Source: Microgenomates group bacterium Gr01-1014_5
GTDB taxonomy: Bacteria > Patescibacteriota > Microgenomatia > UBA8517 > UBA10165
NCBI GenBank assembly: GCA_007376395.1
Contig: VMGE01000007.1
Span: 8,037 to 72,036 of the forward strand
Direction of reading: 5' to 3'
Length of the DNA stretch: 64,000 nucleotides
The position numbers and the translations under genes were made by a program. Of this stretch, positions 19,219 through 61,369 are shown in pieces. Each line of letters opens with the position of its first letter. Position 1 is the stretch's first letter. The notes below the pieces were generated by a model, which was not told the origin of the DNA, made no database searches, and saw only the letters and a program-made list of their open reading frames with translations.

Positions 19219-19251
19219 TCCACAAGTATACCAGGCTCAGAGGCTTAAATT

Positions 19252-19300
19252 CCAGATTGCCGGATAATCAGATTTCAGATTGCCAGATCGTCAGATTATC
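19252..19300. repeat. CAGAT-rich repeat, part 1 (similar to 35001-35040)
   Basis: ccagattgccgg...tttcagattgccagatcgtcagat matches ccagattaccgg...tttcagattaccagatttgtcagat in argS. Confidence 0.6.
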
Positions 19301-19474
19301 TCTTCTTAAAAGCGTACTCTTTCCAAGTTGTTCTTAAACGATTTAATTGCTTGGAAAGTTCTTTATACGACACAATCAAGTTTTCGCATTTATCTTTCGG
19401 TATACGAGGGAACCGTTTACAAAGAACTGTAACCTTCTTGAGATGAACGCAAGTCTCATCGCTTTCAACCATAG

Positions 19475-19684
19475 CTATTTCGTAATTCTGGCAGCATCTC
19501 GTGGATTTCTTTGCCTTGAAAAGCCTTCACTAATAAGCGGTGCGATTGCTTCTCCAGATTTTATTAGCTGAGTTCTTAAATTTAAATGTGGAACTAAATA
19601 TGCTATCTCATATAAGGGGTCTAGAAGGTCTATAGAAACTTTATAAACTCTCAGATCAGAAGCTCGTTTAATAGAAGTAGACAC
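19475..19684 (-). pseudogene. fragment of a four-helix-bundle (Avd / 23S-rRNA-IVS-protein family) gene
   Basis: LRTQLIKSGEAIAPLISEGFSRQ resembles the conserved core (SQL.RAA.SI..NIAEG..R) of the four-helix-bundle family; only 69 aa. Confidence 0.3.
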
Positions 19685-19696
19685 CAGTCTATCTTA

Positions 19697-19735
19697 TCAG
19701 ATCTGAGAGTCTGGTCATCTGATATCTGGTAATCC
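19697..19735. repeat. CAGAT-rich repeat, part 2 (39 bp; 2 mismatches to 35033-35071)
   Basis: tcagatctgagagtctggTcatctgatatctggtAatc against tcagatctgagagtctggCcatctgatatctggtCatc. Confidence 0.75.
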
Positions 19736-19748
19736 GACTGTCTGAAAC

Positions 19749-19964
19749 TTATTCTCCATCTGGCTGGATGCCAAGAAGCCAAAGTACTGCGGTTTTTTTG
19801 TAACGCCTGTCTCCACGCGAATTAATTCTAATCGGAGTTAGTTTTCCGCGCTTTCCCCAGCGCTTTATAGTTAAAGGAGAAACCCTCAAAATTTCGGCGA
19901 CTTCACGGACAGTGAGAAGGTCTGGGAGGTCATTTATTTTTAGTGCTTTTTTACCCTGAATCAT
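19749..19964 (-). CDS. excisionase/AlpA-family helix-turn-helix DNA-binding protein
   Basis: LLTVREVAEILRVSPLTIKRWGKRGKLTPIRI..RGDRRYKK: the Xis-family HTH_17 pattern. Confidence 0.6.
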   Translation of the reverse strand: MIQGKKALKINDLPDLLTVREVAEILRVSPLTIKRWGKRGKLTPIRINSRGDRRYKKTAVLWLLGIQPDGE

Positions 19965-20047
19965 GTGAGCAAGCCAGAAGAACTTACTGATACTGACTGT
20001 ATCAGACTACAACTTTTTGTCAAGCACCAATTTTCTCATTCATATGA

Positions 20048-20584
20048 TTAATTTATTTTGTATGTTCTGGCGTTTGGTTGCGGATTTGTTCCGCCTTTTC
20101 CAGAAACATACGCTTTACTCTCCGGATCAAACGAAATCTCGGTCTCTCCCTTCCTCAGCACTTGAAACTCAAGCCGTATTACTGACAACTCGGAATTCTC
20201 AGACTGTTCGACGGTTGGATTGGCGGTCAAAGAAAATCTTCCGGATTCTTGATTCCAGAGGACTCTCACCGGCTGGCTAAAAAACGGACCTTCTGTGGCT
20301 GAAACTAACTTCAGAGCTGTCGGATCATATTTCAAACGTATGTCTGCCGCGTTAACCTGACCCGCGTCGCGCCCGCGGAAATATACGCCAACCGACAAGG
20401 TCTTTCCTGCTTGGGCTTCCCCGTTGTCAGGCGTGAGAGCCAAGGCCACTTCGGGCAATCTATTTTGCCCGACCACTAAAAAGAGGGTAACGCAAAAAAT
20501 TAACACAGAAACAGAAAGAATCGCGATACTCCAGACATGATAAAAGGTATAACGCATAACTTCCCTATTTAAATATATACGCAA
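20048..20584 (-). CDS. membrane-anchored protein with cohesin-like domain
   Basis: N-terminal TM. TLSVGVYFRGRDAGQVNAADIRLKYDPTALKLVSATEG resembles a cohesin beta-sandwich segment. Adjacent to a dockerin-bearing gene. Confidence 0.4.
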   Translation of the reverse strand: MRIYLNREVMRYTFYHVWSIAILSVSVLIFCVTLFLVVGQNRLPEVALALTPDNGEAQAGKTLSVGVYFRGRDAGQVNAADIRLKYDPTALKLVSATEGPFFSQPVRVLWNQESGRFSLTANPTVEQSENSELSVIRLEFQVLRKGETEISFDPESKAYVSGKGGTNPQPNARTYKIN

Positions 20585-20604
20585 ACGCGATTAAATTCCA
20601 ATGC

Positions 20605-22044
20605 TCAACATCCATTGCGGCAAAGGTAATATCCAACGAATAAATTGTAATCAAAAATATCAACATCGTTATCTTTGTCTATATCGGCAGGGGTGACGCC
20701 AGATGGCTTCCGTTTACCAAAATGCGAAACGAGAACATTATAGTCAAAGATATCTAAATCACCATCAGCGTCCAAATCACCAGAGATAGAAACCGGCCAA
20801 GGTGTAGGTTGGGGCGAGGTAACAGGCGTAGGGCTTGGGGACGGGTTTGTTACAGGGGGTGGTTTTTTTGTCGGACTTGGCGAAGCTGTTGGTTGGGAAG
20901 TTAAGAAAAAACTTTTATTAGAACCCATAACCGCGTCAAAATCTCCATGCACGTCCCACCAATTCCTTAACTTTCTACCCTGATAATATTTCGTGTTTTG
21001 CCTACCCGGCATATTTTGCAGAACCCAAATTTGCGCGTTTAAGTGCGCATTATCGGCGTCTCCTGTCCCATCACAACCCCAGTTAGCACAACTAATTTGG
21101 CTCAACTGCCCAAGCCCGTCCGGATCCCAGTCCAAACAGTCAGACGTGTTTGGAGTTTTGTTGTCACGGTCGTATTCACTCCGTGCGTTGGGCGGATTGT
21201 GCACCGACCCGCACCTGCCCGGCACTTCCTGAGTTAAAGGATAATATGGCCCTTGAAATTTACCTCTAAACAAATCCCGGTCAATTTCGTCCATTTCCGC
21301 TTCCAGCTGGTGCCCCCAGGACTCTATCGCCTCAGCAGTTCCCCTACCATAATTAAGGGTATACACACGGTAGGTTTTGCTGCAAACAGGCATATCGTTA
21401 AAACGCCAGCTGTTGCTTATATCCCCGAACGGGCCAGACATCTTTGATTCGTTTATTCCTAAATAAGGCTGGCCGGTCTCCGGTATGTTTGGACCCTGAT
21501 ATGCCCAGAGCCATACCTCACGGACATTTTTATTGTCGACATAATCACAAATATTATTGTCAGACATAATCTTATTATAATCGGGGTAAGTAACTCTTTC
21601 TCCTCTGGTTTTTATGGGAACTTTTTGGGTATATTCTTTAGTGTCTACAATCGTATAGCGCAAAGAGGAGGGAGCAGAGGGATTTTTGTACCCCAGGTAA
21701 CGGGTAGATTTTTCCAAAGAATCTTTTAGATTGCGGGTTATGTCAATGGTTTTTTGACGGATAATGTCATAGGGTTCTCCAACGTCGCCCGTCACTAATA
21801 TATCGATACTCAACCCGTTTGAAGTCAGAGGGAAATATTTAACGACTAAAACTCCCAAGTCATAGGAAGTGTCTGTTGGATCAATATCTGAGGCTTCAGG
21901 AATTACATTTTGCTCACTTTTAAGAAGAGTTAGTGAGGCAAACACCCCGACAATTAATAAGGCAACTGCCGTTAAACCAAAAAGATTGTAGGGAAGTTTA
22001 GGTATTTTCAACATTTCAGGGTGTAGATATATTATAGTATACAT
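20605..22044 (-). CDS. secreted protein with Pro/Thr-rich linker and C-terminal dockerin repeats
   Basis: Signal/anchor at the N-terminus. C-terminus DLDADGDLDIFDYNVL and DIDKDNDVDIFDYNLF each have Asp at positions 1, 3, 5, 9 and 12 (calcium-binding dockerin consensus). Confidence 0.55.
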   Translation of the reverse strand: MYTIIYLHPEMLKIPKLPYNLFGLTAVALLIVGVFASLTLLKSEQNVIPEASDIDPTDTSYDLGVLVVKYFPLTSNGLSIDILVTGDVGEPYDIIRQKTIDITRNLKDSLEKSTRYLGYKNPSAPSSLRYTIVDTKEYTQKVPIKTRGERVTYPDYNKIMSDNNICDYVDNKNVREVWLWAYQGPNIPETGQPYLGINESKMSGPFGDISNSWRFNDMPVCSKTYRVYTLNYGRGTAEAIESWGHQLEAEMDEIDRDLFRGKFQGPYYPLTQEVPGRCGSVHNPPNARSEYDRDNKTPNTSDCLDWDPDGLGQLSQISCANWGCDGTGDADNAHLNAQIWVLQNMPGRQNTKYYQGRKLRNWWDVHGDFDAVMGSNKSFFLTSQPTASPSPTKKPPPVTNPSPSPTPVTSPQPTPWPVSISGDLDADGDLDIFDYNVLVSHFGKRKPSGVTPADIDKDNDVDIFDYNLFVGYYLCRNGC

Positions 22045-23646
22045 ATGCCCTCTTTAAGCGAATTAGCAACGAGGCGCAAGATATTAAAATATATAGGCAT
22101 TACGGCGGCGGTCGCTGCAATTCCCGCGGCCTTTGTACTTGGTCGGTCATCAGCTCCTCCCCCAGCTCCAGAAACTCCCAAACCTCTACCCGAAACACCA
22201 AAACCAGCGGAATCCACGCCGCCAGATGCAGTTTCTCAACCCAAACCAACTGCTAGACCAACAGCCTTCATCCCAGAACTCGCCATACCAACTCGTCCAC
22301 TTCCACCAACCCCGAAACCAACAGAAAAACCGCGCCCCACCGAACTTCCAAGCGGGAAAATTTGGGAAGTACCGCTGAGAGAAAACTTACGTCCTGATGG
22401 CGCTTTTACTATAGTTCAGAACAGATTATTTGCCGTAAATCCTGCAGGTACGCCGGTTGAATTAAATTTAAATACTGGGAAACCTGAATGGGAATGGGAA
22501 CGGAGAGGTATCATCTGCGGTAGAGGAAACGGCCTTGTCTATTTCCTAAACCTCGAATCGTTTAGAGTATATGCCGTAAATGCAGACACCAAGCAAGAAA
22601 AATGGAAGTATGCTCTCCCCAACACGCTTTTTGGCGGCAGTGCGCCAGGAGAAACTTCTGCTGCTATGGTTGGTTTGCACTTTTGGACAGCGGGTGAGTA
22701 TATTGCCTTTGAATCCACCGAAGGAATTGCAGTCGTCAATAATAGCGGAGAAACGAAGGTAATCACAAACAGGGGAGGGAAATTTTTACTTTTAACCGAA
22801 AACAAACTACTCTACAACAAGTGGGCAAACTACCAAAGTAGAATTATACGAGCAGAAAAACCAGTCGGAGACGACCTGGAAACCTGGGAAATTGAAAACG
22901 GTCCACAAGTTTCTGACCGAGAGATTGTTATCCACCAAGAAATAAACAGAAACTCCTTCTACGGAGCGTCCCAAATCTATGCCAGAGAGACAAAAACGGG
23001 TAAAATTGTCTGGAATCAAGAATTCCTTTCAAGTACGGTTCCTGTGTTCCTTTCGTCAGAAATTGTAATCTTAGAAGATCCAGATTGGAAGTCAAACCAG
23101 CAACTCTTCTATTATCTTTACTCTCGCAAAGACTGGAAAAAAATTGACGAGCTTCCCAAACAACCAGCAACACCTCTTAAATTTTTTTCTAAAGACAATT
23201 GGACTTTTGCTTCTCATCCGAGAAACGGGACAATGGCATTTTTAGACGGTAAATATGTTTGGCAGAACGAAGATACTCTTTCAGCGACGCATTGTCTGGG
23301 AGAAATAAACGGTACGCTAATACTCGCCCGAGAGAATATCCGTGGACAATCTTCAAACCCCGAGGGCGCAGTTTGGTGTGTAGATATTAAGACCGGGAAA
23401 AAATTTGCCTGGCCACCTGTTTATTTTGACCCTTTTATGACTGACCCTCTGCGCCTTGGCGACAAACTTATTGTCTCACATGGGGTAGGAGGCAAAAGGT
23501 TCGAGCTAGATGTACTTAACTTAATTACTGGTAAAAAAAGCAACCTTCTGTCTCCCAATCTTTCTGTTCAACGACTCTTAAACTCAGGCGTCGACAACAT
23601 CATTGTAGGGCTATATTCTTCTAAATTAGTTGCTTTGAGAGTTTAA
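22045..23646 (+). CDS. secreted PQQ-like beta-propeller repeat protein with Tat-type signal (RRKIL + hydrophobic) and Pro-rich linker
   Basis: Repeated ...TG/TK..W.. motifs (ADTKQEKWKY, ETKTGKIVWNQ, DIKTGKKFAW). Confidence 0.5.
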   Translation: MPSLSELATRRKILKYIGITAAVAAIPAAFVLGRSSAPPPAPETPKPLPETPKPAESTPPDAVSQPKPTARPTAFIPELAIPTRPLPPTPKPTEKPRPTELPSGKIWEVPLRENLRPDGAFTIVQNRLFAVNPAGTPVELNLNTGKPEWEWERRGIICGRGNGLVYFLNLESFRVYAVNADTKQEKWKYALPNTLFGGSAPGETSAAMVGLHFWTAGEYIAFESTEGIAVVNNSGETKVITNRGGKFLLLTENKLLYNKWANYQSRIIRAEKPVGDDLETWEIENGPQVSDREIVIHQEINRNSFYGASQIYARETKTGKIVWNQEFLSSTVPVFLSSEIVILEDPDWKSNQQLFYYLYSRKDWKKIDELPKQPATPLKFFSKDNWTFASHPRNGTMAFLDGKYVWQNEDTLSATHCLGEINGTLILARENIRGQSSNPEGAVWCVDIKTGKKFAWPPVYFDPFMTDPLRLGDKLIVSHGVGGKRFELDVLNLITGKKSNLLSPNLSVQRLLNSGVDNIIVGLYSSKLVALRV

Positions 23647-23695
23647 ATAATTATGGAAAAAGATAGTAGAAATGAAAAATATTTAAGTAAATAAA

Positions 23696-23983
23696 ATGAC
23701 AGATTCAACTTTTGACAAAATAATGAAAAGTTTATGCCTTGTGTTGCTCAGTTGGATCTTGGGACTTCCAATTTTTTTGATTTTTCTTGAAATTGATAAT
23801 ATGGCGCCAATCGGAATATTGGGAATAGTAATTATTTTTATTTTTGTTGGCCGAGTCGGGTATTACTGGATCAACGATTCTAAAAAGGGAAAAATCTTTT
23901 ATGCAGTTTTACCTGCAATACTTAGCTTCTTATTGCTTCTGGTCTTCTTTATCATCACTCTTGGAGGATGGACTGTCGGGTAG
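23696..23983 (+). CDS. hypothetical small membrane protein (3 TM)
   Basis: 95 aa, strongly hydrophobic. Confidence 0.35.
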   Translation: MTDSTFDKIMKSLCLVLLSWILGLPIFLIFLEIDNMAPIGILGIVIIFIFVGRVGYYWINDSKKGKIFYAVLPAILSFLLLLVFFIITLGGWTVG

Positions 23984-26363
23984 CTCTAAGTTCGTCCAAC
24001 TGCCTACCAATTACTGCTCTCAAAATTGCTCGTCCAATTTCTGATTTAAAGAAGCGGTCATGTCCAAACCCCTCTATTGCTCCCAAAAATCTCCCAATAT
24101 TTATTGCCCCCGGAATTTCCTGACTAAGCATATCTTCTAATCTTGACGGGTTTGTTAAAAAGAGAATTTCGACCAGCTCTTCTGGCATTAAACAAATGTT
24201 TAATGAAATTACACAGTCTTGGTAATTTATCAAAGCATAAACTCCAATCCCCTGTGCTTTCATCCAGGAAACAATCTCGTTAATTTCCTGTTTCCTTGCT
24301 ACTCGATTTTTACCGTAATTAATTAAGTTTTTACCTGCATCAAAATTCAGAAGTGAGGGTTGGGGCATACTGTCCCAGATAATTTTACATGCGTCCGAGC
24401 TCGCATCCCGAAACACGCGATTATAAATATCAATAACACTTTCCCCAACACCTTGAGCCGGCGCGTCAACAAAGATAAACTTTATTCCTTGTAAATTAAT
24501 ATTTAACTTTTTATCTCTTATCTTTTGCATCGCCGTAAGCCAAGGTATTGCACCTTCTGAGTGTGTGACAACTACTATTTCCCTATCTGAGTCTGCCTCG
24601 CGTAGGGCGATGATCGACTCTACAAATCTATCAGCTCTCCATTCAGGGGAAGACAAACTGTCATCACAGCTAGAAGTTCTAGAAAGCCACCTCCCTGTTT
24701 TTTCGTCCCAATAAATTCCCCTAGGACTAAAACGCATAAAGTCGGTTCTCTCAAAACCGTCTTCTTGTATTAGTTCCGTTTGTAGCTCGTCTGTCAGGCC
24801 GCTTGTTTCCAAACTTACGCCCTCCCCAACAATTTCAGTTGTCAGCCCCGGAGAAAAACCAACTAGTTTTCTTTTAGGGACAAAAACTTTTGGCTGGACT
24901 GTAAGTTCATAAATGGCAAAATCTCTTTCAAAAAGGCGGTGGGTTGGTATGTGCTCTTTGGGCTGTTGGGCAATTACTGTAGCAAAACCACCGTCTGAAA
25001 TAGAGGTAATAATCCAATTTCCGTCCGGAGTAATCGAAACTCCTCGCCAGGTATTAATTAACAAACTTTCAACTTTACCTGAGGAAACCTCGGTCCTAAA
25101 TAATAGAGGGTAAGCTTCATCTTCTGCGCCCGAAGTGTAAAGCCATCTTCCGTCAGGCGACCAAAACAAAGGCCCTCCGTGAATTAACCTTGGTAATTTC
25201 TCAGGATTGAAATTTTTCAGTTGGTCACGAGGATAAATTACAGTACCTGAAGGCCCGTGTCGACCAGAAATATATGTTCCAATAGCGATTTGTTTTCCGT
25301 CAGGACTTGGTGTAGGGCAACTTTCGGCACTACTAACCTTGTCTGACGTTATTTGCTCAACTCTTTTGGTTCTTAAGTCGACTGAATAAACATTTTCGAA
25401 AGATTCTACAAAATTCTTACCTGCTTCTATTCGGTGAAATTTTACAGTGTTATCAACATCGGACGAGGGACAAAGATCCAAGCCCTGATCTCCCCCGAGA
25501 CTGGTTAAATATTCTTCTTTCCCTGTATGTATATTTAGCTTGACGATACCTCTTTTGGAATCTTTAACACTCTTCGACTTAGGTCCTAAATCAGCATAAA
25601 CTACTTCTTCGTTATTTATAAACTTTACATCCTGCTTTGACCTATCATCATTCGTTAATCGTTTTTCCTCTGAGCCGTCTAAGTTGGCAACATAGATATC
25701 TCCCTGCTCGCCCTTTGCACCGATATAAACAACTTTTGTCTTTGCAAATGATGTCGGGTATTCAGATTCTGTGAAGTAATTTTTACATGGCTTCAGCCCG
25801 GCGAGAGTTTGCGGCAAATCCTTTTTAGGGATTTCTTCTACTCTTGTAGGCATAAACGCTATAAATCGAGGATTAAAGTGGAAAATTACACCTGAATATC
25901 CACTGAGTTCAGAAAACCCAAGCGCGGATAAATTTTTAAAAACAACTCTTAACTCCATCCCTAATGTATAGCCCACACATTCCGGTGCCGTTTTAGAAAA
26001 CGAAGTCTTTAAAAGTTCAATCATTTGACTTTCGTTTTTGAATGGGCTTGAGGAGACTCCTTGTACTTTCCAATGAAATCTGGCGTCGATCCCTTGTATG
26101 CCTATACGCCTAGCAATTTCTGCTATATCCCTACCTTCGATGATTTTTTGATATTTAGCAGCGGCCCTTGCTGCGGCGGGAGATAAATCGTTTAATACTT
26201 GCTCTCGCGCAAGATATAGCTCCGTAGCGGATGCAGTTTGTAAATTTCGGCCAAAATTTCTGGGGCTCTCAAATGCCCCAGGATGTCCGGCAAGAAGAAC
26301 ACCCGCAGTAACACCTCGGACAACATTAGAAACTCGTCTCCAATGCTCGGCAGTTAAAGACAT
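23955..26363 (-). CDS. 802-aa multidomain protein with TolB-like beta-propeller repeats and a possible alpha/beta-hydrolase segment
   Basis: PSPDGKQIAIG, WSPDGRWLYTS and ITPDGNWIITS repeats. THSEG is a lipase-like nucleophile-elbow candidate. Confidence 0.5.
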   Translation of the reverse strand: MSLTAEHWRRVSNVVRGVTAGVLLAGHPGAFESPRNFGRNLQTASATELYLAREQVLNDLSPAAARAAAKYQKIIEGRDIAEIARRIGIQGIDARFHWKVQGVSSSPFKNESQMIELLKTSFSKTAPECVGYTLGMELRVVFKNLSALGFSELSGYSGVIFHFNPRFIAFMPTRVEEIPKKDLPQTLAGLKPCKNYFTESEYPTSFAKTKVVYIGAKGEQGDIYVANLDGSEEKRLTNDDRSKQDVKFINNEEVVYADLGPKSKSVKDSKRGIVKLNIHTGKEEYLTSLGGDQGLDLCPSSDVDNTVKFHRIEAGKNFVESFENVYSVDLRTKRVEQITSDKVSSAESCPTPSPDGKQIAIGTYISGRHGPSGTVIYPRDQLKNFNPEKLPRLIHGGPLFWSPDGRWLYTSGAEDEAYPLLFRTEVSSGKVESLLINTWRGVSITPDGNWIITSISDGGFATVIAQQPKEHIPTHRLFERDFAIYELTVQPKVFVPKRKLVGFSPGLTTEIVGEGVSLETSGLTDELQTELIQEDGFERTDFMRFSPRGIYWDEKTGRWLSRTSSCDDSLSSPEWRADRFVESIIALREADSDREIVVVTHSEGAIPWLTAMQKIRDKKLNINLQGIKFIFVDAPAQGVGESVIDIYNRVFRDASSDACKIIWDSMPQPSLLNFDAGKNLINYGKNRVARKQEINEIVSWMKAQGIGVYALINYQDCVISLNICLMPEELVEILFLTNPSRLEDMLSQEIPGAINIGRFLGAIEGFGHDRFFKSEIGRAILRAVIGRQLDELRATRQSILQE

Positions 26364-26724
26364 TATTTACCTACTCTACCTTGTCAAATTTTTCTCAAAA
26401 TATCAAGTGCTTATTTTCCAGCTTCGCAAGTGCCTTACAACACGTAAGGAAATAAACTAAAAAACCAGAATTGAATTGGTCATATGTAGTTTTAAGTCCG
26501 GTAAAAATAAGATTATTTAACGCACCAATATCTTCTAAATGAGTTGTCTTTTATAATTCAAATTCATATCTATTAAAATGATTTTATATGCCTGTATAAA
26601 GCATTAAACGCCACCTGTTGCATGAATGGATATAAAATTTACTCGGGGGGAGTAAAATTGAACAAGCGGGTAAAAAATACAAAATAAGAAGTCAAACTGA
26701 TAATTAAGAATTAATGAAATTTGC

Positions 26725-27888: not shown

Positions 27889-29097
27889 TTACACAACAAG
27901 TTTTTGTATAATTTTTAATGTGTTATAAGCTGTATTGCGCCATGACATATTCTTTGCGTTTTCAACACCTTTCTTAACTAAAACACCGACAAAGGTTTTA
28001 TCCTCTAAAACCCGGTTAATCGCGCGGGTAATTTCAAAAGTGTTAAGGGGATTAATAAAAATTGCCGCGTCTCCAGCAACTTCTCTTAAGGCACCCTTGT
28101 CCGAGCAAACGACAGGTACGCCTGCGGCTTGTGCCTCGAGCACGGGAAGACCAAAACCCTCAGTTAAAGACGGCAATACAAACGCCTGAGCGCCTTTGTA
28201 GAGCCCAGGAAGGTCTGGTTCGTCAATTCTACCGGTGAAAACAACCTTGTCTTTTATTCCAAAGCGAAATGGCGCCTGCATGATTTCATCGTATAACCAA
28301 CCTGCCTTACCGGCAATTACCAATTTTCCATTATGTTTTACCTTTGAATAAGCCTCTATCAAACGAACAAGGTTTTTTCTAGGCTGTAAAGTCCCGACAA
28401 ACAGTATATAGTTTTCGCCGGTATGGTATTTGTCGCTTAACTGTTTACGGTTTAGGGGCACGTTGTGATATTTTTCGAATTCAACACCCTCGTGTACTAC
28501 TTCAATACTATTGCGATGTATATTGTATGTATTAAGTACTTCTTTGAGTGTGTCGTTTGAGACCGCGATTAGATGGTTAGCAAACCTCACCGACCAACTG
28601 ATAGACCAATTGCGGTGAATATGAGATAAAAAGCTACCAGCTTGCGGTAAATATTTTCCCTCCAGTCCATGGATTGTAACCAATATTGGCATTTGCGGTA
28701 ATAATTTAACCTTAGACCCTATACCAAAAACCGCTCTTGTTATTAATGGCAATGTATGTGCGGGAATAAATAAAATACCAGGTGGGTCTGTTAAAGTCTC
28801 CCACGCTAATCCCAGCTGTGTCCAAAAGCGACCAGGATAGATTGTCTTTGTCTTGAAATTTTGCGGCAATGGGAAGTTTGGCCTTTGTTTTGGTCTTAAA
28901 TAGAGCACATAGCGGTTTTTATGGTCAATTTCGGCTAAATTCTTTATTAAATGCCAACTGTAGTACTCAGGACCAGCAGGGTCTTTTACAAAAGCACGAC
29001 TAGCGTCAACACCGATAGTAAACCGCCTTTTTGGCGAAATTTTCAATTTTAAATTTTCAATTTTCAATGTAGTAGACGCTCTTAAATTATTAGGCAT
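27889..29097 (-). CDS. GT4-family glycosyltransferase
   Basis: C-terminal E.FG..VLEA.A.G.PVV motif (TEGFGLPVLEAQAAGVPVVCS). Confidence 0.8.
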   Translation of the reverse strand: MPNNLRASTTLKIENLKLKISPKRRFTIGVDASRAFVKDPAGPEYYSWHLIKNLAEIDHKNRYVLYLRPKQRPNFPLPQNFKTKTIYPGRFWTQLGLAWETLTDPPGILFIPAHTLPLITRAVFGIGSKVKLLPQMPILVTIHGLEGKYLPQAGSFLSHIHRNWSISWSVRFANHLIAVSNDTLKEVLNTYNIHRNSIEVVHEGVEFEKYHNVPLNRKQLSDKYHTGENYILFVGTLQPRKNLVRLIEAYSKVKHNGKLVIAGKAGWLYDEIMQAPFRFGIKDKVVFTGRIDEPDLPGLYKGAQAFVLPSLTEGFGLPVLEAQAAGVPVVCSDKGALREVAGDAAIFINPLNTFEITRAINRVLEDKTFVGVLVKKGVENAKNMSWRNTAYNTLKIIQKLVV

Positions 29098-29105
29098 TTA
29101 AAAAA

Positions 29106-29951
29106 TTATCTCTTTATAATCGAACGCTTATACAAATCAAGATTTTCCAAAGCTATTCCTGTCCCCCGGACAACACAAAGAAGCGGATCTTCTGCTAAGT
29201 GCGCAGGGACTCCTGTTTCTTCAGTAATTAACCGGTCAAAATTGCGCAAAAGGCTTGTTCCTCCAGACATAGTGATTCCACGCTCAATAATGTCGGACGC
29301 CAGCTCAGGCGGAGTATCTTCCAAAACTCCTTTAACAGCGCCAATAATAGAAAGGAGGGTTTGCTTAATCGCCTCTGTAATCTCAGACGAAGTTAAAACT
29401 ATGGTTCTGGGTAAGCCCAATACCTGGTCACGGCCTGATACCTCCATCGTTTCCTCTTTAGCAAGATGAATTGCTGATCCTATTTTAATCTTTATGGCTT
29501 CTGCTGTTTGATCACCGATAATCAAATTATGCTTCCTGCGCATGTGATTGGCTATTGCCTCATCGATTAAGTAGGCGGCCCGGGCTCCAGCCGACAAAGT
29601 CGCGTCCAATACAGCCCTACGTTCTACTTGGGTACAGCCGGCAGGCACGCAAATCATAACCTCAGGCTTGAAAAAAGCAATCCTGGGAGCAACTTTGGAG
29701 ATAAAATAACGCAGCATTGCTTCTGTCACCTGGTAATCTGCAATCACCCCTTCGCGCATAGGACGCATAGCTACAAGGTTTTCCGGGGTACGGCCAATCA
29801 TGCGTTTAGCCTCGTTGCCCACTGCCACAACCCGGTTTTCTTCAGTGATAGCAACAACTGTCGGCTCGTTAGCGACAATTCCCTCGCCAGCAACCCAGAC
29901 AAGGGTGTTTGCCGTACCTAAATCTATAGCGATACGTTGGGATAGCAGCAT
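29106..29951 (-). CDS. mreB: MreB-like actin homolog with ~55-aa internal deletion removing the phosphate-2 (DxGGGTT) segment
   Basis: N-terminal IDLGTANT and C-terminal halves align to MreB. The sequence jumps from ...GARAAYLIDE directly to AIANHMRRKHN..., which corresponds to DEAIINYVRRNYG in E. coli MreB. 281 aa against ~340. Confidence 0.7.
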   Translation of the reverse strand: MLLSQRIAIDLGTANTLVWVAGEGIVANEPTVVAITEENRVVAVGNEAKRMIGRTPENLVAMRPMREGVIADYQVTEAMLRYFISKVAPRIAFFKPEVMICVPAGCTQVERRAVLDATLSAGARAAYLIDEAIANHMRRKHNLIIGDQTAEAIKIKIGSAIHLAKEETMEVSGRDQVLGLPRTIVLTSSEITEAIKQTLLSIIGAVKGVLEDTPPELASDIIERGITMSGGTSLLRNFDRLITEETGVPAHLAEDPLLCVVRGTGIALENLDLYKRSIIKR

Positions 29952-30184
29952 TTTATATTAATAGAACCAAAAAACGTTAAACGGTTACGAAACGCGTATC
30001 GTTTAGCGGTTACTGCAAAGCAGTAAGTTTCTTACGCCTTTCCTTACCGATACTAGCCTCGTTACCGAATAACGACTTACTATACTATGGTTTGATATCT
30101 TTAGTACTATTACTGAGACAAAAGTTGGGGCAGATTACTTAAAGAGTATAAACTCATTTAACTCGAATTTGCAACTCTCTTTAA

Positions 30185-31324
30185 TTGATTTTGAACCCAA
30201 AATTCTATCCTAAAAATTGCAAGCTTGACACTAAAAATCTTGGTCTTAAACCAACAGGATTATTGGTCGCGACTTCTTCTCCGGACGGCGCCCAAATATT
30301 GATTAATACTATTCTTGAATCAGCCACAAACGCCACGCTCTCCCTACCCCCTGACAGCTATGATGTAGAAATTAAGAAAGAGGGCTTTTTAACCTGGCGC
30401 AAGCGTTTAACTATTAAAAAAGAAGAAGTAACTAAGGTCGATGCCGCCCTTTTCCCTGCAGCCCCTTCGCTTTCTGCGCTTACTTTTGGAGGTGCAATTA
30501 TGCCTGTAACCTCTCCTGACGGAACGCGGATTGTTTTCGGCGTGCCAAAATCAGCCGACAACACCAAACTCGGGCTTTGGGTTATGGATCTTGGTAATTT
30601 ACCAATCGGCTTTTCGTCAGATCCCAGACAAATCACGAACCTCTCCCCTGAAACCTCTTCCTGGAGCTGGTCACCTGATTCGCGGCAGGTCCTAGTTACA
30701 ACGCAAGCCGCAGGCGGCACATATCTTCTTCCGGCAGGATCTTACACTGCAGACCGGGATTTGGTAAATATCCGCGGGGCCCGGCTTGAGAAAGTACTTG
30801 CCCAGTGGCAGGTAGAAAAGACAAACCGCCGGGAAGATGACCTTGATCTCTTACCGAGCGAAATGCGGGATTTTCTAGAAAGAAAGGCCCAAGATTTCGT
30901 TTTTTCTCCCGATGAAAACAAAGTCCTTTATATTGCATCTGCCTCTGCAAGCTTGAAAGAAGAGCTTAGATCTCAAATTCCGGGCTCTTCTACGCAAAAA
31001 CAAGAACGTGGTATCAAACAATCACAAACCTATGTATACGATATAAAAGAAGATCGTAATTTTTACATTACTGACCAGAAAGTAATTTTAAATTCTGCGC
31101 TGAGCACAATAGGCTGGTTCCTGACAGAAAATATCGTACTCGCCGAACAAAATAATGTAACTATCATGGACTACGATGGAACTAACAGACAGGTTGTTTG
31201 GTCAGGCCCTTATATTGCTCCTTACGCAATTCCTGCACCTAACGGCCAGCGATTATTCTTACTTACTCCTCTTGGGGCAGGTAGTCCAAGCTTCGCAAAC
31301 ATTTATGCGTTGGGTTTGAAGTAA
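30185..31324 (+). CDS. PEGA-domain plus beta-propeller (TolB-like) repeat protein
   Basis: PDGAQILINTILESATNATLSLPPDSYDVEIKKEGF is PEGA-like. SPDGTRIVFG and SPDSRQVLV repeats. The true start may be internal. Confidence 0.45.
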   Translation: MILNPKFYPKNCKLDTKNLGLKPTGLLVATSSPDGAQILINTILESATNATLSLPPDSYDVEIKKEGFLTWRKRLTIKKEEVTKVDAALFPAAPSLSALTFGGAIMPVTSPDGTRIVFGVPKSADNTKLGLWVMDLGNLPIGFSSDPRQITNLSPETSSWSWSPDSRQVLVTTQAAGGTYLLPAGSYTADRDLVNIRGARLEKVLAQWQVEKTNRREDDLDLLPSEMRDFLERKAQDFVFSPDENKVLYIASASASLKEELRSQIPGSSTQKQERGIKQSQTYVYDIKEDRNFYITDQKVILNSALSTIGWFLTENIVLAEQNNVTIMDYDGTNRQVVWSGPYIAPYAIPAPNGQRLFLLTPLGAGSPSFANIYALGLK

Positions 31325-31343
31325 TTGCTACAATTAGAATGGT

Positions 31344-31928
31344 ATGGATAGTTGGGATGGTAAGAACAATCCAAAGAAAGCAGGATATGAATATCTTCTA
31401 GCCTACAAGATTACTATCCCTATTTACGATTACACTGTAAGCTTTTGCAAAAAATACCGCGGATTACTTTCCTCGCATCGAACTTATGATCAAATGGTTC
31501 AAGCCGGAAGATCTGGCTCAAACAACATTCCAGAAGGAAATAAACAGGCAAGTCTAGAGGGCTATATTAAATTAACAGGGGTAAATCTTGCTTCTTTAGA
31601 AGAACTCTTAAAAGATTATTTAGCTTTTTCTCGACAAAACAAAACTCCAATTTGGGGAAAAGAAGAAACAGTAAGGAATGTAAGGGAGGTTGGGTTGGTG
31701 TGGGAAGTAATTCGAAAAACTTCAACCCTCCCCGACTCCCCTAACTTCCCCGACCTTCCCGATAATCTTGCCAAAGCTGTTAACTTAATGATTACACTTG
31801 TTAACCAAGCTATTTATTTGCAAAAAAGGCTCAGGGAGTCTTTAGAAAAGAAATTTGTCGAACAAGGTGGATTTCGGGAAAACCTTTTTAAGAGACGGTT
31901 AGACTACAGAAGAAAGAATGGTTGTTAA
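31344..31928 (+). CDS. four-helix-bundle protein (Avd / 23S rRNA intervening-sequence protein family), paralog of 61370-61930
   Basis: Shares NIKLTGV and EGGFRENLF.RRL with 61370-61930. MVQAGRSGSNNIPEG resembles the family core. Confidence 0.5.
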   Translation: MDSWDGKNNPKKAGYEYLLAYKITIPIYDYTVSFCKKYRGLLSSHRTYDQMVQAGRSGSNNIPEGNKQASLEGYIKLTGVNLASLEELLKDYLAFSRQNKTPIWGKEETVRNVREVGLVWEVIRKTSTLPDSPNFPDLPDNLAKAVNLMITLVNQAIYLQKRLRESLEKKFVEQGGFRENLFKRRLDYRRKNGC

Positions 31929-31955
31929 GCTCGGTTGTGGTAAAATAGAACTCAA

Positions 31956-32027
31956 GCTCCCATAGTTCAACGGATAGAACAGTCCCGTCCTAAGGGATAG
32001 ATCCGGGTTCAATTCCTGGTGGGAGCA
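31956..32027 (+). tRNA. tRNA-Arg (anticodon CCU)
   Basis: Acceptor GCTCCCA/TGGGAGC, D-arm GTTC/GAAC, anticodon stem GTCCC/GGGAT with loop GTCCTAA, T-arm CCGGG-TTCAATT-CCTGG. Confidence 0.7.
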
Positions 32028-32097
32028 CCCTTTGACTGGCTCAGGGTAAACACGGGGTGTAGTGAATCGGTATCACGCCGTTCGCCCCGTAAAATTT

Positions 32098-32169
32098 CGG
32101 AGAGTGGTGCAACGGCGGCACGCCGCGTTCGGGACGCGGAGGTAGAGGGTTCGAGTCCCTCCTCTCCGA
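32098..32169 (+). tRNA. tRNA-Pro (anticodon CGG)
   Basis: Acceptor CGGAGAG/CTCTCCG, D-arm GTGC/GCAC, anticodon stem CCGCG/CGCGG with loop TTCGGGA, T-arm GAGGG-TTCGAGT-CCCTC. Confidence 0.8.
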
Positions 32170-32327
32170 CTGAAATTAACGGGGTAAAGGACGAAGGGTT
32201 CAATGGCGCTCTTCGCCATATACAATAATGTTCACTTTAGAGCGAAGTAAGCCATATGAATCTGCGATTCATATTCCCAGCACCCCGACTTTGACTTCAG
32301 AGAGTGCCTGGAATATAATTACCACAA

Positions 32328-32852
32328 ATGGCAATTGCAGAATTTGCAAGATTACATTTACCCTCTCGAATGGTAATTGGTTTTCTGGAAACTGATATCA
32401 GCGATCACCTAAAAAGAGACGAGTCTCGTCATTCTGAAGCCGAAAGTCGGGCAAGGCAAAATCTAGCTGTTTGGGGCGCCAAGCTTGTCAAAGAAGGTGT
32501 TATGTCAGAAGGACCGGTGACCATAGACGCAGTTAGTCTAGGTCGACATAGAGAAGGATATATGGAAATAGCAACTACAGGCAGTGAAAGACCACTCTAT
32601 GGCGCGTTCAAAGCAAGAAGAGTCGTAGTTATGCATACCTCAGGCAGGTTGTTTAAAATAGATAGGGTTTTTAATGGTAACGATCTAAATAAGAGTGCTT
32701 TGTTCTTTCAGTTCGTTGATCGTCCTAAAGAGTTGACAGGAGAAAACTACATCCGTGCAGCTTACTATGCCTACGAAGCAATTAATCGCGCGCTTGAGAA
32801 AAGGCCGTTTACTTCTCCCCAAATATCTCTTCCTCGCGGAACCACAGTTTAA
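32328..32852 (+). CDS. hypothetical protein
   Basis: 174-aa ORF. Its 3' end overlaps the frameshifted ndk tail on the opposite strand. Confidence 0.35.
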   Translation: MAIAEFARLHLPSRMVIGFLETDISDHLKRDESRHSEAESRARQNLAVWGAKLVKEGVMSEGPVTIDAVSLGRHREGYMEIATTGSERPLYGAFKARRVVVMHTSGRLFKIDRVFNGNDLNKSALFFQFVDRPKELTGENYIRAAYYAYEAINRALEKRPFTSPQISLPRGTTV

Positions 32853-33359
32853 TTTCAAACTCCGCCTCTTCGGCAGTGCCTGAGGAGTGAACCATATTGT
32901 AAACTGCGCGTTTGTTAAGAGCGGATAGACCCGGAGAATCATAATGATAATCTCCTCTTATGGTCCCTGGAGGAGCGTCAAGTGGATAGGTCGGCCCGAC
33001 ATGTTTTCTGACGAGTTCTACCGCATGGGGTCCTGATAAAACAACGGCTAAAACGGCCCTTCTTTTAAATAATCAAATAACCAGCCTTGGATTTTCTGTC
33101 CAATCTCTACCGGGTCTGAGGTGCCCAAATCCTCGTTAGGATCCTTGCCATTCTCCTCCCAAAATTTAATTGTGGACTCCCCCACTTTGCGGAACCACGC
33201 CTCGTCTTTGTTATAGTGCTTTTCGAGAAGCACGTCATTAACTCTTAACATTTTGGCTCCAACAATCTGCAAACCAATTCGCTCAAAGCGCGTTAGGATT
33301 GCTCCAACAAGACCGCGTCTTACTCCGTCGGGTTTAACTACAAGAAGTGTTTTTTCCAT
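32809..33359 (-). pseudogene. ndk: nucleoside diphosphate kinase, reading frame broken at a TTTT run (~33051-33057)
   Basis: N-terminal frame [22 protein letters not shown]...HY...LKEGP then a stop. The adjacent frame continues [37 protein letters not shown]...HSS, matching the NDK C-terminal half. Confidence 0.65.
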
Positions 33360-33362
33360 AAA

Positions 33363-34724
33363 TTACAGTTTTAAGAGCTTTTGGAATTTTACAGTATCAA
33401 CAAAAGGTCCGACAACCGCCAAATTAAGCTTTGGAGTGGTAAAAAAGCCATTGGCAAGACTGTGAACGTCGCTCATCGTGACAGCGTCAATTCCAGCCAT
33501 AACCTGCTCGACTGTGCGCACTTCTTCCTCAAAAAGCTCCTGGTCGCCAAAGAATTCTGAGACAGAATGGGTGTCTTCTAATCCCAAAGCCAGTCTGCCT
33601 TTCAAATATTCCTTAGCTTTTGTAAGCTCCCGGTCTTTGACCTTACCGGGCGTGGAAATTTTGTTAAATTGCGCCAGTATTACCTCTATGGCCTCCTCAA
33701 CACTATCTAATTTAACCCCCGCCCTCGCGGCTATATACCCTGTATCTTTGTAATGGTCGATGTCGCAGCGAACATAATATGCAAGCCCTCTTTTCTCACG
33801 GATCTCATTCCAAAGCCAGGAAGACATTCCCCCACCGAGAATTGAAGCTAAAACTGCCTCTTTATAGCGGTCAGGGTGCCCCAAACGGTTGCCGCGCACA
33901 CCAAGCACAATATGTGCCTGCTCGGTTTTTTTATTTACCATTCTAATCTCGGGCTTTTTGGAAGGGTTCAACTTGGAAATGCGAGGTGAGAAGTGTGAAA
34001 CTGGATTCGCTTCGCTCTGACGTGCGAGGTGAGATTTCCCACTTCCCATTTCATTATCCAGCTTCCCATTTCTCACGTCCAACTTCGATCTACCAAGTTT
34101 CCCAAAATACTTTTGAGCCAGCTTAAGTACCTCGCTCTGGTCAAATTTACCCGCAACCGACAAAACCATGTTTTCTGGCTGGTAATAATCAGCGATAAAG
34201 CCTTCAAAATCTTTTTTCTCCATTGTGCGGATGGTTTCAGGGGTTCCGGCAACATCCCAACCGAGAGACGTCTTGTCAAATAAGAGCTCTTCAAAAAGAT
34301 AAGGGGCTTTATACATCGGCAAGTCCTCGTACATAGCAATTTCCTCTATAATTACCCCTTTTTCCTTCTCGATCTCACGTTCTTTTAATATCGGTGCCGA
34401 AATAAATTGCGATAATATATCAAACGCTAAAGAAAGATATCGTTCCCACGCTTTAATATAATATCCCGTGCGCTCTTTCCCGGTTGAAGCATTAATCTCT
34501 CCGCCTATCCCGTCAACTGCGGCTGAAATTACTGCAGAAGTAGGATATTTTTTTGTCCCCTTAAAAACCATGTGCTCCAAAAAGTGAGCCAGGCCTTGTT
34601 TTTTAACATTTTCATCACGGGAGCCTGAACCAATCAAAATTTGCACCGTTGCCGATTCCATGGCAGACATGGGAGCGGTAACTACGCGGAGACCATTATT
34701 AAGAGTGTGTTTTTGAAAATCCAT
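33363..34724 (-). CDS. M16-family (pitrilysin/insulinase-like) zinc peptidase
   Basis: Inverzincin HxxEH motif (GLAHFLEHMVFKGT); 453 aa. Confidence 0.8.
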   Translation of the reverse strand: MDFQKHTLNNGLRVVTAPMSAMESATVQILIGSGSRDENVKKQGLAHFLEHMVFKGTKKYPTSAVISAAVDGIGGEINASTGKERTGYYIKAWERYLSLAFDILSQFISAPILKEREIEKEKGVIIEEIAMYEDLPMYKAPYLFEELLFDKTSLGWDVAGTPETIRTMEKKDFEGFIADYYQPENMVLSVAGKFDQSEVLKLAQKYFGKLGRSKLDVRNGKLDNEMGSGKSHLARQSEANPVSHFSPRISKLNPSKKPEIRMVNKKTEQAHIVLGVRGNRLGHPDRYKEAVLASILGGGMSSWLWNEIREKRGLAYYVRCDIDHYKDTGYIAARAGVKLDSVEEAIEVILAQFNKISTPGKVKDRELTKAKEYLKGRLALGLEDTHSVSEFFGDQELFEEEVRTVEQVMAGIDAVTMSDVHSLANGFFTTPKLNLAVVGPFVDTVKFQKLLKL

Positions 34725-34730
34725 TAAGGT

Positions 34731-36478
34731 TTACATTTTACTCGGAGCTTCGATTCCAAGCAAGTGGAGACCGGTTTTAAGGATAATTCCGGTCGCCTGA
34801 GTAAGGGCAAGACGGAAAGAGCTTGCTGTGTTCTGTGCGCTATCTGCTAATATCCTGTGTTTTGCATAAAAAGTGTTGTAGCGCTGGGCAAGCTCAAAAA
34901 GATAAGTACAAACCGTGTTTGGAGCAAAGTTTAAGGCGGCTTCTTCAACCACCTCGGGAAAACGGTAAATCCATCTCAAAAGAGCAAGTTCTTCAGATGC
35001 CAGATTACCGGGTTTCAGATTACCAGATTTGTCAGATCTGAGAGTCTGGCCATCTGATATCTGGTCATCTGATAATCTGGATTTCGCGATTACGCTTTCT
35101 GTTCTCGCATATGTGTACTGCAAATAAGGAGCAGAATTCCCTTCTAGAACAAACATTTTCTCCCAATCAAAAATAATATTTGATTCAGGGAATACTTTAT
35201 TGCCCCAATCCCCACTGCTTTGGCCTGCCCATCTCCTCCGTGAGCAAGCTTTTGTGCTCTTTCTATTGCCTCTTCTAAAACTTCTTCCAGTCTTACAATA
35301 TCCCCTCTCCTGGTTGAAAATTTTTTACCGGAAGGCGAGAGATATAAACCGTGCTTGATATGGACAAATTTTGTAATGTCTTCCGGGTGCAGAAGACGGT
35401 AAGCGGCAAAAACCTGCCGGAAGTGCAATTCTTGCTCTGCTCCAACTTCGTAGGCGATTAAATCCGGTTTCCACTCGTTTTTCCTGTATTCGATTGTCGC
35501 CAAATCCCGTGTGAGATAGGTTGACGCTCCATCTGATTTTCTTAACATGGCAGGCGTCATCTCCTCATTTGGAAAATGAATTACTAAAGCGCCTTGGTCT
35601 TCGGCTGCAATTTCTTTCTGTTCATATTCTTCGATAATGCCGTCGAGCGCTGTTTCATAAAAACTCTCTCCGTGCGCAAAGTCTATTTCAACACCCAAAA
35701 GTTTATAGATTCGCTCGTATTCCTGAAGCGATATATCTTTGACTTTTTTCCAAATATCACGTGCCTGAACATCTCCGTCTTCCAGCTTCTTAAACCAAAG
35801 CCTTGCCTCTTCTTTTAAGTCTGGATTTTCCTGGGATTTTGTGTTGAATTCGACATATAACTCCTGTAATTTTTCAATATCCAGAGTATCGGGGTCTAAG
35901 TTTTTATCAGTTATTTGGTATAAAAGAGTACCAAACTGCGTACCCCAATCTCCCAAATGGTTGTCGCCTATTGTCTGCCAGCCTAAAAATTTATATAGAT
36001 TGTAAAGCGCTTGTCCTATTATTGTCGATCTTAGGTGTCCAATTCCAAAAGGTTTAGCCACGTTGGGGGCAGAATAATCGATTACCATAGTCTTGCCATT
36101 ACCCAAATCGGACGAACCATATCGCTCACCTTTTTCCGTAATCAAAGACATTTCCTGACAAAGCGCGTCCTTGGAAAGCCAGAAGTTAATAAATCCGGGC
36201 TGAGCAACCTCAACTTTCTCAACATAATCTTTTAATTCTTCGTTCTTCTCTAGCTGTTCTACTATGGCTTTAGCAAATTCTAACGGGCTATTCAATTTCA
36301 AATTTAAAATTTCAAATTTAAAATTCCCAAACATCGTCATCGCGATGTTTGTAGAGTAGTCTCCATGCGCTTCCTCGGCAGGATGCTCGAGCTTAATCTC
36401 TCTGCCAGCAGGTGAATTACCCGTTATCTGAGTTACTGATAACTCGAGTGACTGTTTTATCTTCTCCTTTGCCTGCAT
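34731..36478 (-). pseudogene. argS: arginyl-tRNA synthetase, split by a 1-nt frameshift at an A/T run (~35178-35186)
   Basis: Upstream ORF has the catalytic HIGH-class motif (GIGHLRSTIIGQ) and ends at ...AIKYSLNQ. The downstream ORF begins ...IIFDWEKMFVLEGNSAPYLQYTYAR and carries the DALR anticodon-binding domain. The start is probably at Met38 (36478). Confidence 0.7.
35001..35085. repeat. CAGAT-rich repeat inside argS coding sequence (contiguous copy of the two halves seen at 19252 and 19697)
   Basis: Translated in-frame as ISDDQISDGQTLRSDKSGNLKPGNLA. Confidence 0.7.
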
Positions 36479-36551
36479 ATCTTTGAGTATACAGGCTTGA
36501 TCTTCTAAGTTCCAGTTGACGACCAAGTAATGGGTAATGTTAAAATTCCCT

Positions 36552-61363: not shown

Positions 61364-61369
61364 TCAAAT

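Follow-up and report, generated by a model that had tools for sequence, protein, structure and literature searches.

We analyzed a stretch of 64,000 nucleotides from contig VMGE01000007.1 of Microgenomates group bacterium Gr01-1014_5 (the window, meaning here the whole 64-kb stretch), in which a CAGAT-rich repeat flanks a small gene at 19246-19762 and recurs inside argS, the gene of the arginyl-tRNA synthetase (ArgRS). On balance we favor the reading that this repeat represents the inverted terminal iteron arrays of a selfish element of ~520 bp, similar to the intervening sequences (IVSs) of rRNA genes, and that the argS copy is a gene-less derivative, comparable to a MITE (miniature inverted-repeat transposable element), residing in a permissive linker. 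As judged from sequence comparisons with loci and contigs of relatives and of other genomes (designated by L-numbers), the architecture is conserved across contexts and phyla, the element is polymorphic in presence and in orientation, and there are gene-less ("solo") copies whose best match is the resident element.

The pentamer CAGAT was counted 137 times in the window (106.9 ± 10.6 expected), and runs of at least three CAGAT or ATCTG within 60 bp were detected at only three places in the whole window: 19253-19296, 19698-19762 and 34994-35079. The initial annotation had described a clustered repeat, split at 19.25 and 19.70 kb and contiguous in argS, and both the pentamer scan and an alignment bore this out, the rejoined halves from 19.25 and 19.70 kb aligning to the argS copy at 82% identity. 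The arm at 19697-19762 and the argS copy have in common a 33-nt block, CAGATCTGAGAGTCTGG[C/T]CATCTGATATCTGGT, with a difference at the single C/T position. Two occurrences of this block were counted in the window, against none in 100 shuffles, with 2 mismatches permitted. The similarity of the second half, given earlier as 2 mismatches in 39 bp, is in fact 3 in 39 bp, with 1 in the 33-nt core. The iteration of pentamers at 7-8 bp had been recognized correctly, but the palindromic form of the repeat had been missed.

At the first locus, one arm lies at 19246-19296 (+), on the 3' side of the gene and facing a seven-transmembrane (7TM) gene. It holds six iterons (CAGAT, CGGAT and four times CAGAT) and a 20-mer, CAGATTTCAGATTGCCAGAT, that is matched exactly in the element of the L005 group. 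The other arm, at 19697-19762 (+), is found upstream of the gene, on the side of a helix-turn-helix (HTH) gene. It consists of ATCTG-type iterons, contains the 33-nt block, and its outermost iteron overlaps the HTH stop codon (19749-19751). Complementarity between the two arms is 82% in the iteron cores and 62% in the spacers. Between them, at 19296-19684 (-), is a four-helix-bundle gene (23S_rRNA_IVP/TIGR02436, hereafter the IVP gene). It is a pseudogene in the window, where a 1-nt deletion, identified by alignment with relatives, leaves two open reading frames (ORFs), 19475-19684 and 19296-19472. What had been taken for a filler of ~390 bp with a gene fragment is 400 bp (19297-19696) and holds the whole IVP gene, disabled by that deletion.

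The two ORFs matched the intact 128-aa gene of L005 with 90% and 68% identity by tblastn. The N-terminal ORF scored below the Pfam cutoff for PF05635 (E = 9.4e-5, 23 bits, cutoff 33.8), as expected since it is a fragment of a pseudogene, while the intact orthologue P0121 scored above the cutoff for TIGR02436 (40.9 bits, cutoff 24) and homologues carry a precomputed PF05635 annotation. Among the relatives, L005 and L010-L012 have an intact gene, and L004 and similar loci have one that is 99% identical. The contigs of close relatives, retrieved through their identical neighboring HTH protein, show the repeat split in the same manner around the intact gene. An AlphaFold model of the protein has four helices (pLDDT 95), and the top Foldseek matches were 2GSC (TM 0.74-0.83), 2RLD and 4DWL, bAvd (probability 0.99-1.0). 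The predicted fold thus resembles the pentameric S23p structures and the accessory protein bAvd of a diversity-generating retroelement. PADLOC returned no match for the IVP proteins, and a search of viral contigs found no member of the subfamily.

The IVP gene starts with GTG, and a -10-like hexamer, TAAGAT (19691-19696, -), precedes this codon by 6 nt; in all of the 10 subfamily members, a TAnnnT hexamer stands 5-6 nt ahead of the start codon. This suggests a leaderless IVP transcript that would start at the inner end of the upstream arm; as a generic sigma-70 scan found no full promoter at the IVP gene, the box stays putative. The gene cassette is bracketed by a 6-bp direct repeat, TCAGAT (19291-19296 and 19697-19702, +), and the argS copy has a single TCAGAT at the junction corresponding to the position of the cassette, an arrangement that would fit deletion or insertion of the cassette at microhomology.

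Homologues of the same subfamily, with identities of 58-82%, came from species-representative genomes and from assemblies of metagenomes and gave 12 distinct contexts (the window, the L005 group, L017-L024, L105 and L124). In all 12, the gene lies between inverted arrays of 5-7 YC[AG]G[ATG]T iterons at 7-8-bp spacing (z up to 12.6), whereas shuffled windows contained 0-1 such arrays. Since the gene sits between such arms in each of these contexts, the supposed insert is the conserved cargo of the element. The insertion contexts are mutually unrelated: after the HTH gene, between nqrD and nqrE in a metagenome-assembled genome of Bacteroidota, at RNase HII/S21, and after an M16 peptidase gene beside argS.

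The association extends beyond this subfamily, to two others from CPR (the candidate phyla radiation) with arrays of the CAATTTA/TCAAAT and ATTGTT types. Inverted arrays flank the IVP genes of L022b (CAATTTA/TCAAAT type, z = 7.5), L004 (AT-rich, z = 8.8) and L036 (ATTGTT type, z = 8.2). We also examined eight plasmid four-helix-bundle genes of cyanobacteria, Bacteroidota and Chloroflexota (genera Nostoc, Planktothrix, Gloeocapsa, Pseudanabaena, Anabaena, Bernardetia and Chlorohelix), picked for taxonomic spread before inspection of their DNA. Flanking inverted arrays of short, mostly ~7-nt units were present in 8/8 (z up to 18.7), although for Anabaena (L111) the arrays were visible and yet not significant (z = 2.5). 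The units differ between plasmids, with AATTCAA x4 against TTGAATT x4 in Nostoc flagelliforme, AATCCCC/AATCGTA in Planktothrix, TTTTAGA in Gloeocapsa and GGATGAA in Chlorohelix, and the arrays at cyanobacterial IVP genes are near-perfect heptamers. Two controls were performed. When every gene of a 50-kb stretch of a Nostoc plasmid was scored, the IVP flanks reached 62 (median 17, next-best 28), and among 189 ORFs of candidate phyla radiation (CPR) and other loci the median was 18 and the 95th percentile 25.6, compared to 27-43 for IVP genes. The top flank score of the control set belonged to a sortase-like gene of L020 (Curtissbacteria), which is bracketed by two palindromic heptamer arrays of 130-140 nt (154-293 and 1006-1135; AGAAAAT family, ~74% alike).

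Evidence for movement was obtained at the HTH locus. Between the window and L005, the whole element including its arms is inverted and ~75% identical, while the flanks are 89-92% identical. In L017 (Woesebacteria) and L124, the gap of a few nucleotides that separates the HTH stop codon from a convergent gene holds the element, which points one way in L017 and the other way in L124. In L120-L123, another lineage of Candidatus Blackburnbacteria, the group of Microgenomates to which the organism of the window belongs, the corresponding stop codons are 11 nt apart, with neither arm nor gene. In the comparison of relatives proposed earlier, on presence or absence of the 390-bp filler, the filler thus does not come and go alone, arms and gene varying together. 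Counting the other subfamilies and the plasmids, other insertion sites are nqrD/nqrE, RNase HII/S21, the position after M16, cas2/cas1 and drmD/MmeI. An assembly artefact was considered as the origin of the inverted cassette and judged unlikely: the arms are without long exact reverse-complement k-mers, whole arms are flipped, the divergence is 25%, and the orientation in L017 is that of the window.

An invertible switch (inverton), in which the arms would serve as recombination sites flipping the IVP cassette for expression switching, might be suggested by the opposite orientation of the cassette between otherwise collinear flanks in the window and the L005 group, and by the difference in orientation between L017 and L124, but it is scarcely credible given that whole arms and not the interior alone are flipped, that the alleles differ by 25%, that 10/10 contigs retrieved from the L005 population share one orientation, that no invertase lies nearby and that the promoter-like box is inside the flipped segment.

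The second copy in the window is a solo palindrome in argS (34994-35085; left arm 34994-35037, right arm 35036-35079). It is an imperfect palindrome of 85-92 bp centered on AGATCT at 35036/35037, with six CAGAT-type and then six ATCTG-type iterons, again spaced by 7-8 bp. Folding gave -20.6 kcal/mol as single-stranded DNA (z = -4.6) and -35.6 kcal/mol as RNA (z = -4.2). Two of the six reading frames are open through the element. As had been claimed, the repeat is translated in frame within argS, on the minus strand, where it reads ...KSRLSDDQISDGQTLRSDKSGNLKPGNLAS.... The host gene (34731-36589, -) is present in the window as two ORFs, 35144-36589 (481 aa) and 34731-35156 (141 aa), split by a 16-bp deletion, TTGATTTATCTCACCA, at 35190/35191. 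This deletion is 130 nt upstream of the repeat and unrelated to it. In the sibling assemblies L001 and L002, which otherwise have the same sequence, argS is intact, without the 16-bp deletion and with an identical insert; the deletion is either a real variant or pseudogene in the window assembly, or an assembly error.

Compared to the ArgRS of Escherichia coli, 27 aa stand in for the 14-aa linker between the catalytic and anticodon-binding domains. In the sister lineage (ArgS 83% identical), a shorter CCAGG/CCTGG iteron palindrome occupies the equivalent position of argS, and a second iteron insert is found near the C-terminus, at a place where most orthologues, like the window, have no insert. 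A more distant Microgenomates contig, L019, has an iteron palindrome in the argS linker with an IVP element 1.7 kb away. In a survey of argS linkers (70 linkers out of 80 metagenome loci), the typical bacterial linker was ~57-60 nt and aperiodic, and many CPR linkers held 7-8-nt arrays of varied units. The peptide is not common to orthologues, and the argS copy is closest to the element of its own genome, with a score of 62 against the arms of the window's IVP element and at most 57 against those of other genomes. L124 likewise carries a solo palindrome, located at the 7TM/ATP-grasp junction and lacking in the window, L005 and L017, which scored 66 against the arms of L124's own element and at most 53 against others. 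The earlier suggestion of a small MITE-like repeat of iterated pentamers, tolerated in frame by an essential gene, is supported by these results, and the pentamers are probably protein-binding.

As for further copies, the two in the window were confirmed, while none was found elsewhere in ~190 kb of related contigs. An exact-pattern scan of genome and metagenome contig collections with a 23-nt core (22 specified bases and one N) gave no match, placing the source population outside these collections and the core as lineage-specific.

In the model that we propose, the full-length element is composed, in order, of an arm with six YCAGAT iterons spaced by 7-8 bp, the four-helix-bundle S23p/IVP gene with its -10-like box, and the second arm, which is inverted. 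Pairing of the two arms, be it in single-stranded DNA or in a transcript that reads through, would give a long stem with interruptions and a loop that holds the gene. The iterons are predicted to be binding sites for a multimeric protein, and as different protein subfamilies come with different repeat units, the first-choice candidate for the binder is the element's own four-helix-bundle protein, which would form a ring. The element may spread by inserting or recombining at intergenic positions and in arrays that are already present, and gene conversion or slippage may homogenize the arrays. Two origins are the most likely for the argS copy: the cassette may have dropped out between the TCAGAT repeats, or the arms may have been copied into an array that was already there. 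Its survival would be explained by its position in one of two open frames and in a variable linker between the catalytic and anticodon-binding domains.

Several observations weigh against this reading. No enzyme that would catalyze movement was identified, with no transposase or integrase in the element or its flanks, and no clear target-site duplication is visible when the empty site of L120 is compared with the occupied sites of L124 and L017. The TCAGAT pair is not proof of such a duplication either, since the hexamer is in itself one of the iterons. Only two CAGAT copies are present in the 64 kb, with the related contigs yielding no more, and 2 of the 4 solo copies tested do not prefer the arms of their own genome. 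In argS, the element replaces the linker and is not an added 85 bp, the net gain being ~13 aa, and CPR ArgRS linkers carry 7-8-nt arrays of many unrelated units. IVP genes with a C-terminal suffix domain (31377 and 61403 in the window; L014) are without flanking inverted arrays. In the RNA of the full-length element of L005, both minimum free energy and centroid folds pair the arms around the ORF (z = -5.2), and yet of the arm-arm mismatches, 27 were wobble-compatible in the sense and 37 in the antisense direction and 62 were transversions, with no strand bias. As the mismatches are free of a wobble-pair bias on either strand, selection on the arms at the RNA level finds no support in the sequence and an RNA-level role is unsupported. 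Finally, the IVP protein is a predicted binder of the iterons, and the neighboring BldC-like protein is an alternative candidate.

Among the other explanations, we first weighed in-situ evolution of simple sequence, in which 7-8-nt arrays arise from slippage at permissive sites with occasional gene conversion and no transposition, the arrays at IVP genes being operator and terminator. CPR argS linkers with direct arrays of unrelated heptamers (AAATTGC x4, AATTACC x4, CATCTAC x3) speak for it, as does one leuS site that is of the AATTTAA type in the window and AAATCAA x4 in the sister lineage, a classic picture of concerted evolution. The replacement of the argS linker, with no addition, and the heptamer simple-sequence repeats with convergent inverted pairs of Xanthomonas and Nostoc (PMC4692102) point in the same direction. 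From the different heptamers at one leuS site and the unrelated units in argS linkers, it follows that slippage and concerted evolution explain part of the pattern, and this clear contribution makes them the chief rival when the argS copy is considered by itself. As an account of the whole, we nevertheless regard this process as unlikely. Slippage cannot make an inverted second arm, nor a 33-nt block common to loci 15 kb apart. It also leaves unexplained why arms and gene are missing as one unit from an orthologous site yet occur elsewhere in both orientations, why one subfamily comes with one iteron family in 12 contexts that are unrelated and extend to another phylum, and why unrelated repeat families swap at the 7TM/ATP-grasp junction (L120 versus L124).

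A second explanation is that the arrays are binding sites of the BldC-like HTH protein, which would coat direct repeats head to tail at a regulatory or nucleoid-organizing site that flanks the IVP gene incidentally and occurs also in argS. The protein in question is a MerR/HTH_17, BldC-like DNA-binding protein of 71 aa (19749-19964, -), which adjoins the element without being part of it. Among families, it matches BldC (NF033787) best (E = 8.6e-12), and it also matches excisionase-type HTH models. BldC multimers assemble head to tail on 9-bp direct repeats, AATTxxxx(C), whose number varies (PMC5859096). The iterons can be read as (C)AGATTnnC at 7-8 bp, and here too a MerR-like HTH without dimerization or effector domains adjoins an array of short direct repeats. 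In addition, the element sits at the HTH 3' end not in the window alone but also in L005, L017 and L124, and in at least 3 further contigs. However, the score of 44.7 bits is below the curated cutoff of 77, the period is 7-8 bp and not 9 bp, and the repeat unit tracks the IVP subfamily, not the HTH. Thousands of CPR genomes have the HTH irrespective of the element, and most elements (L018-L024, L105 and all plasmid cases) are without an HTH neighbor. We consider this explanation improbable.

The HTH protein had 6489 homologues at ~80-90% identity across Patescibacteria and is among the most conserved small proteins there. A recent co-transfer of the HTH with the element was rejected on the ground that this conservation is that of a core protein. 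In the window and L005 lineages, the segment of HTH and element is inverted relative to the 7TM/ATP-grasp operon, as compared to L017, L120 and L124, which places the element at an inversion breakpoint.

The initial annotation had also offered an attachment or target site in two states, one copy being interrupted by inserted DNA, next to an Xis/AlpA-type HTH gene. In this reading the argS copy would be empty, the 19.3-19.7 kb copy occupied, and the HTH would act as the excisionase. The cassette does lie exactly at the center of the palindrome, bracketed by the 6-bp TCAGAT repeat, its neighbor has an excisionase-type HTH fold, and rRNA IVSs have been reported to replace hairpin tetraloops (PMC4990558). 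Nevertheless, the two copies are different loci and not alleles of one, no integrase is found, no relative has arms without the gene at the HTH locus, and the sole empty site is without arms too. The design of arms plus gene, with the gene as conserved cargo, is kept in every subfamily context. The HTH, for its part, is a conserved core CPR protein whose best family is BldC-like, which leaves both its role as an excisionase and the attachment-site reading unsupported. We hold a two-state site to be very improbable.

Returning to the selfish element, the closest known counterparts are the IVSs of 23S rRNA genes, in which S23p ORFs are bordered by stem-forming inverted repeats, which have long been suspected to be mobile and which occur in ORF-less and ORF-containing forms (PMC4990558). 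The element resembles the IVSs of Leptospira, Coxiella, Brucella and Xanthomonas in its cargo family (S23p/PF05635), in its size of ~0.4-0.5 kb, in a sporadic distribution suggesting horizontal spread, in having forms with and without the ORF, and in complementary borders that form a stem around the ORF, as in the fold of L005. It differs in its location, which is outside helices 9, 25 or 45 of 23S rRNA, in intergenic spacers and operons, the arms-only form being in frame in protein genes, and in its stem, which consists of 5-7 short iterons spaced by 7-8 nt and is poorly matched in the spacers. An Rfam scan of the window matched only tRNAs.

MITEs are short non-coding elements with terminal inverted repeats (TIRs), mobilized by an autonomous element that encodes a transposase. 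The argS copy, a short palindrome of 85-92 bp beside a longer gene-bearing version, is comparable, but here the gene-bearing version encodes only the four-helix-bundle protein, with no transposase in the element or flanks. In systems of repetitive extragenic palindromic (REP) sequences, the REPIN/RAYT systems, a RAYT gene is flanked by inverted REP copies. The likeness is in the gene between inverted repeat copies and in solo copies that best match the resident full-length element. The flanked gene is however an IVP gene, whose product has no known nuclease or transposase activity, and not a Y1 (HUH) transposase. The element is further set apart from both MITEs and REPINs by arms that are iteron arrays and not a single TIR or REP; no clear target-site duplication was seen in the comparison of sites, and the copy number looks very low in the window and the related contigs. 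A RAYT-like Y1 (HUH) gene was seen in L022 (Woesebacteria; 848-1600), between two perfect 22-nt REP hairpins, TTGACAGGGTGCGACCCTGTCA, ~1 kb from the IVP element, and a longer related gene in L023 (2165-3463). Mobilization of the arrays by such a Y1/RAYT transposase was rejected, as the L022 gene has its own, unrelated REP hairpins.

Rickettsia palindromic elements (RPEs) are palindromic repeats that lie in frame within protein-coding genes. The argS palindrome is similarly translated in frame, in an essential gene and at a structurally permissive position. Differences are the unrelated sequence family and phylum, the iteron substructure and gene-bearing counterpart seen here, and the fact that an existing linker is occupied or replaced with no new module. 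Tandem units of ~7 nt that are intergenic, and at times inside genes or structural RNAs, are also known from heptamer arrays: G-rich GGGAATC/GGGGATT repeats in Xanthomonas and Nostoc, with convergent inverted pairs frequent in Xanthomonas (PMC4692102), and TAACTGA repeats in Beggiatoaceae, which are direct and just upstream of start codons (PMC4679880). The units overlap to some extent, TAACTGA being the complement of TCAGTTA and AATCCCC flanking the Planktothrix IVP gene. Compared to such heptamers and to STRRs (repetitive sequences in which short units are tandemly repeated), the CAGAT repeats form imperfect arrays, in which the period is a mixture of 7 and 8 nt and the spacers vary, and neither PMC4692102 nor PMC4679880 links the arrays to a four-helix-bundle gene. 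A literature search gave no description of such an element class and no link of heptamer arrays to four-helix-bundle genes. New here are the location outside rRNA, the iteron substructure, a repeat unit that co-varies with the protein subfamily, and translated solo copies.

We raise more tentatively a wider possibility, that four-helix-bundle genes with inverted ~7-nt iteron arrays form a widespread class of selfish elements in CPR, Cyanobacteria, Bacteroidota and Chloroflexota, each with a small ring-forming protein that recognizes its own arrays, and that rRNA IVSs, cyanobacterial STRR arrays, convergent heptamer pairs of Xanthomonas and in-frame arrays in CPR aminoacyl-tRNA synthetases are products of one system. 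If true, a single explanation would serve for the function of TIGR02436/S23p proteins, the origin of rRNA IVSs and the abundance of heptamer arrays (STRRs and others) in some bacteria. Many odd inserts in CPR proteins, including essential aminoacyl-tRNA synthetases, would also be explained, and small genes wedged in defense operons (cas2/cas1, DISARM, restriction-modification) would be passengers and not components. In annotation, the interrupted repeat is to be treated as one feature, and the argS insert is not to be taken for an error.

Further observations concern four-helix-bundle genes and arrays at other places. On the plasmids L111-L119 (Anabaena, Nostoc, Planktothrix, Gloeocapsa and Chlorohelix), four-helix-bundle genes were found in defense operons, at cas2/cas1, drmD/MmeI, helicase/methylase and DUF1156/Swt1-HEPN. 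The protein WP_100902372.1 is encoded on the Nostoc flagelliforme CCNUN1 plasmids pNFSY05 and pNFSY06, with an identical-scoring tblastn match on a third plasmid. In the window, two four-helix-bundle genes with a TIGR04258 suffix domain are located at 31377-31919 and 61403-61930. A GTCnAATn iteron palindrome precedes the latter and recurs inside it (61358-61397 and 61724-61754). In the sister genome, L014 has a third CAGGT-type iteron palindrome (1640-1760), inside a giant surface-protein gene, and the peptide of this insert (IRKP...ETW.P) resembles the sister argS inserts. At the 7TM/ATP-grasp junction, L120 (1830-1880) has an AT-rich palindrome and L124 (1931-2045) a CAGAT-type one, and three lineages are without either; the junction looks like a hot spot for different repeat families.

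Other repeats were observed in the window. A family of AT-rich heptamers, AATTT[CT]AA, lies in frame in leuS at 40384-40416, 40532-40564, 40975-41007 and 41243-41275. LeuRS has 892 aa in the window and 855 aa in the sister lineage, where AAATCAA x4 is present at one leuS site. Another copy of the same family is in the N-terminal domain of argS (36294-36325), read as 'NFKFEILNLKLN', and one more is at 29038-29070. AT-rich solo palindromes are intergenic, at 37877-37990 between parts of comEC and at 39181-39264 and 39932-40024 flanking comEA. An IVP subfamily gene matching these AT-rich palindromes (129 aa, L004:3121-3510) exists in relatives and is absent from the window. At 36537-36926 (+), a 129-aa ORF made of 33-bp tandem repeats (DQDKRFDEKLLGQDSRFDKKLS...) lies opposite the 5' end of the extended argS ORF, and the equivalent place in the sister lineage holds a 179-aa four-helix-bundle gene (L014:9047-9586). 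Finally, a 26-nt palindrome, TGTACGATATATTAATATATCGTACA, was found in exact form at 2857-2882 and 14926-14951, in a ~85% identical form at 2413-2438 and more weakly at 31032. Two of these copies bracket a 135-aa ORF (2441-2848) beside a tRNA cluster, and the palindromes may be operator sites.

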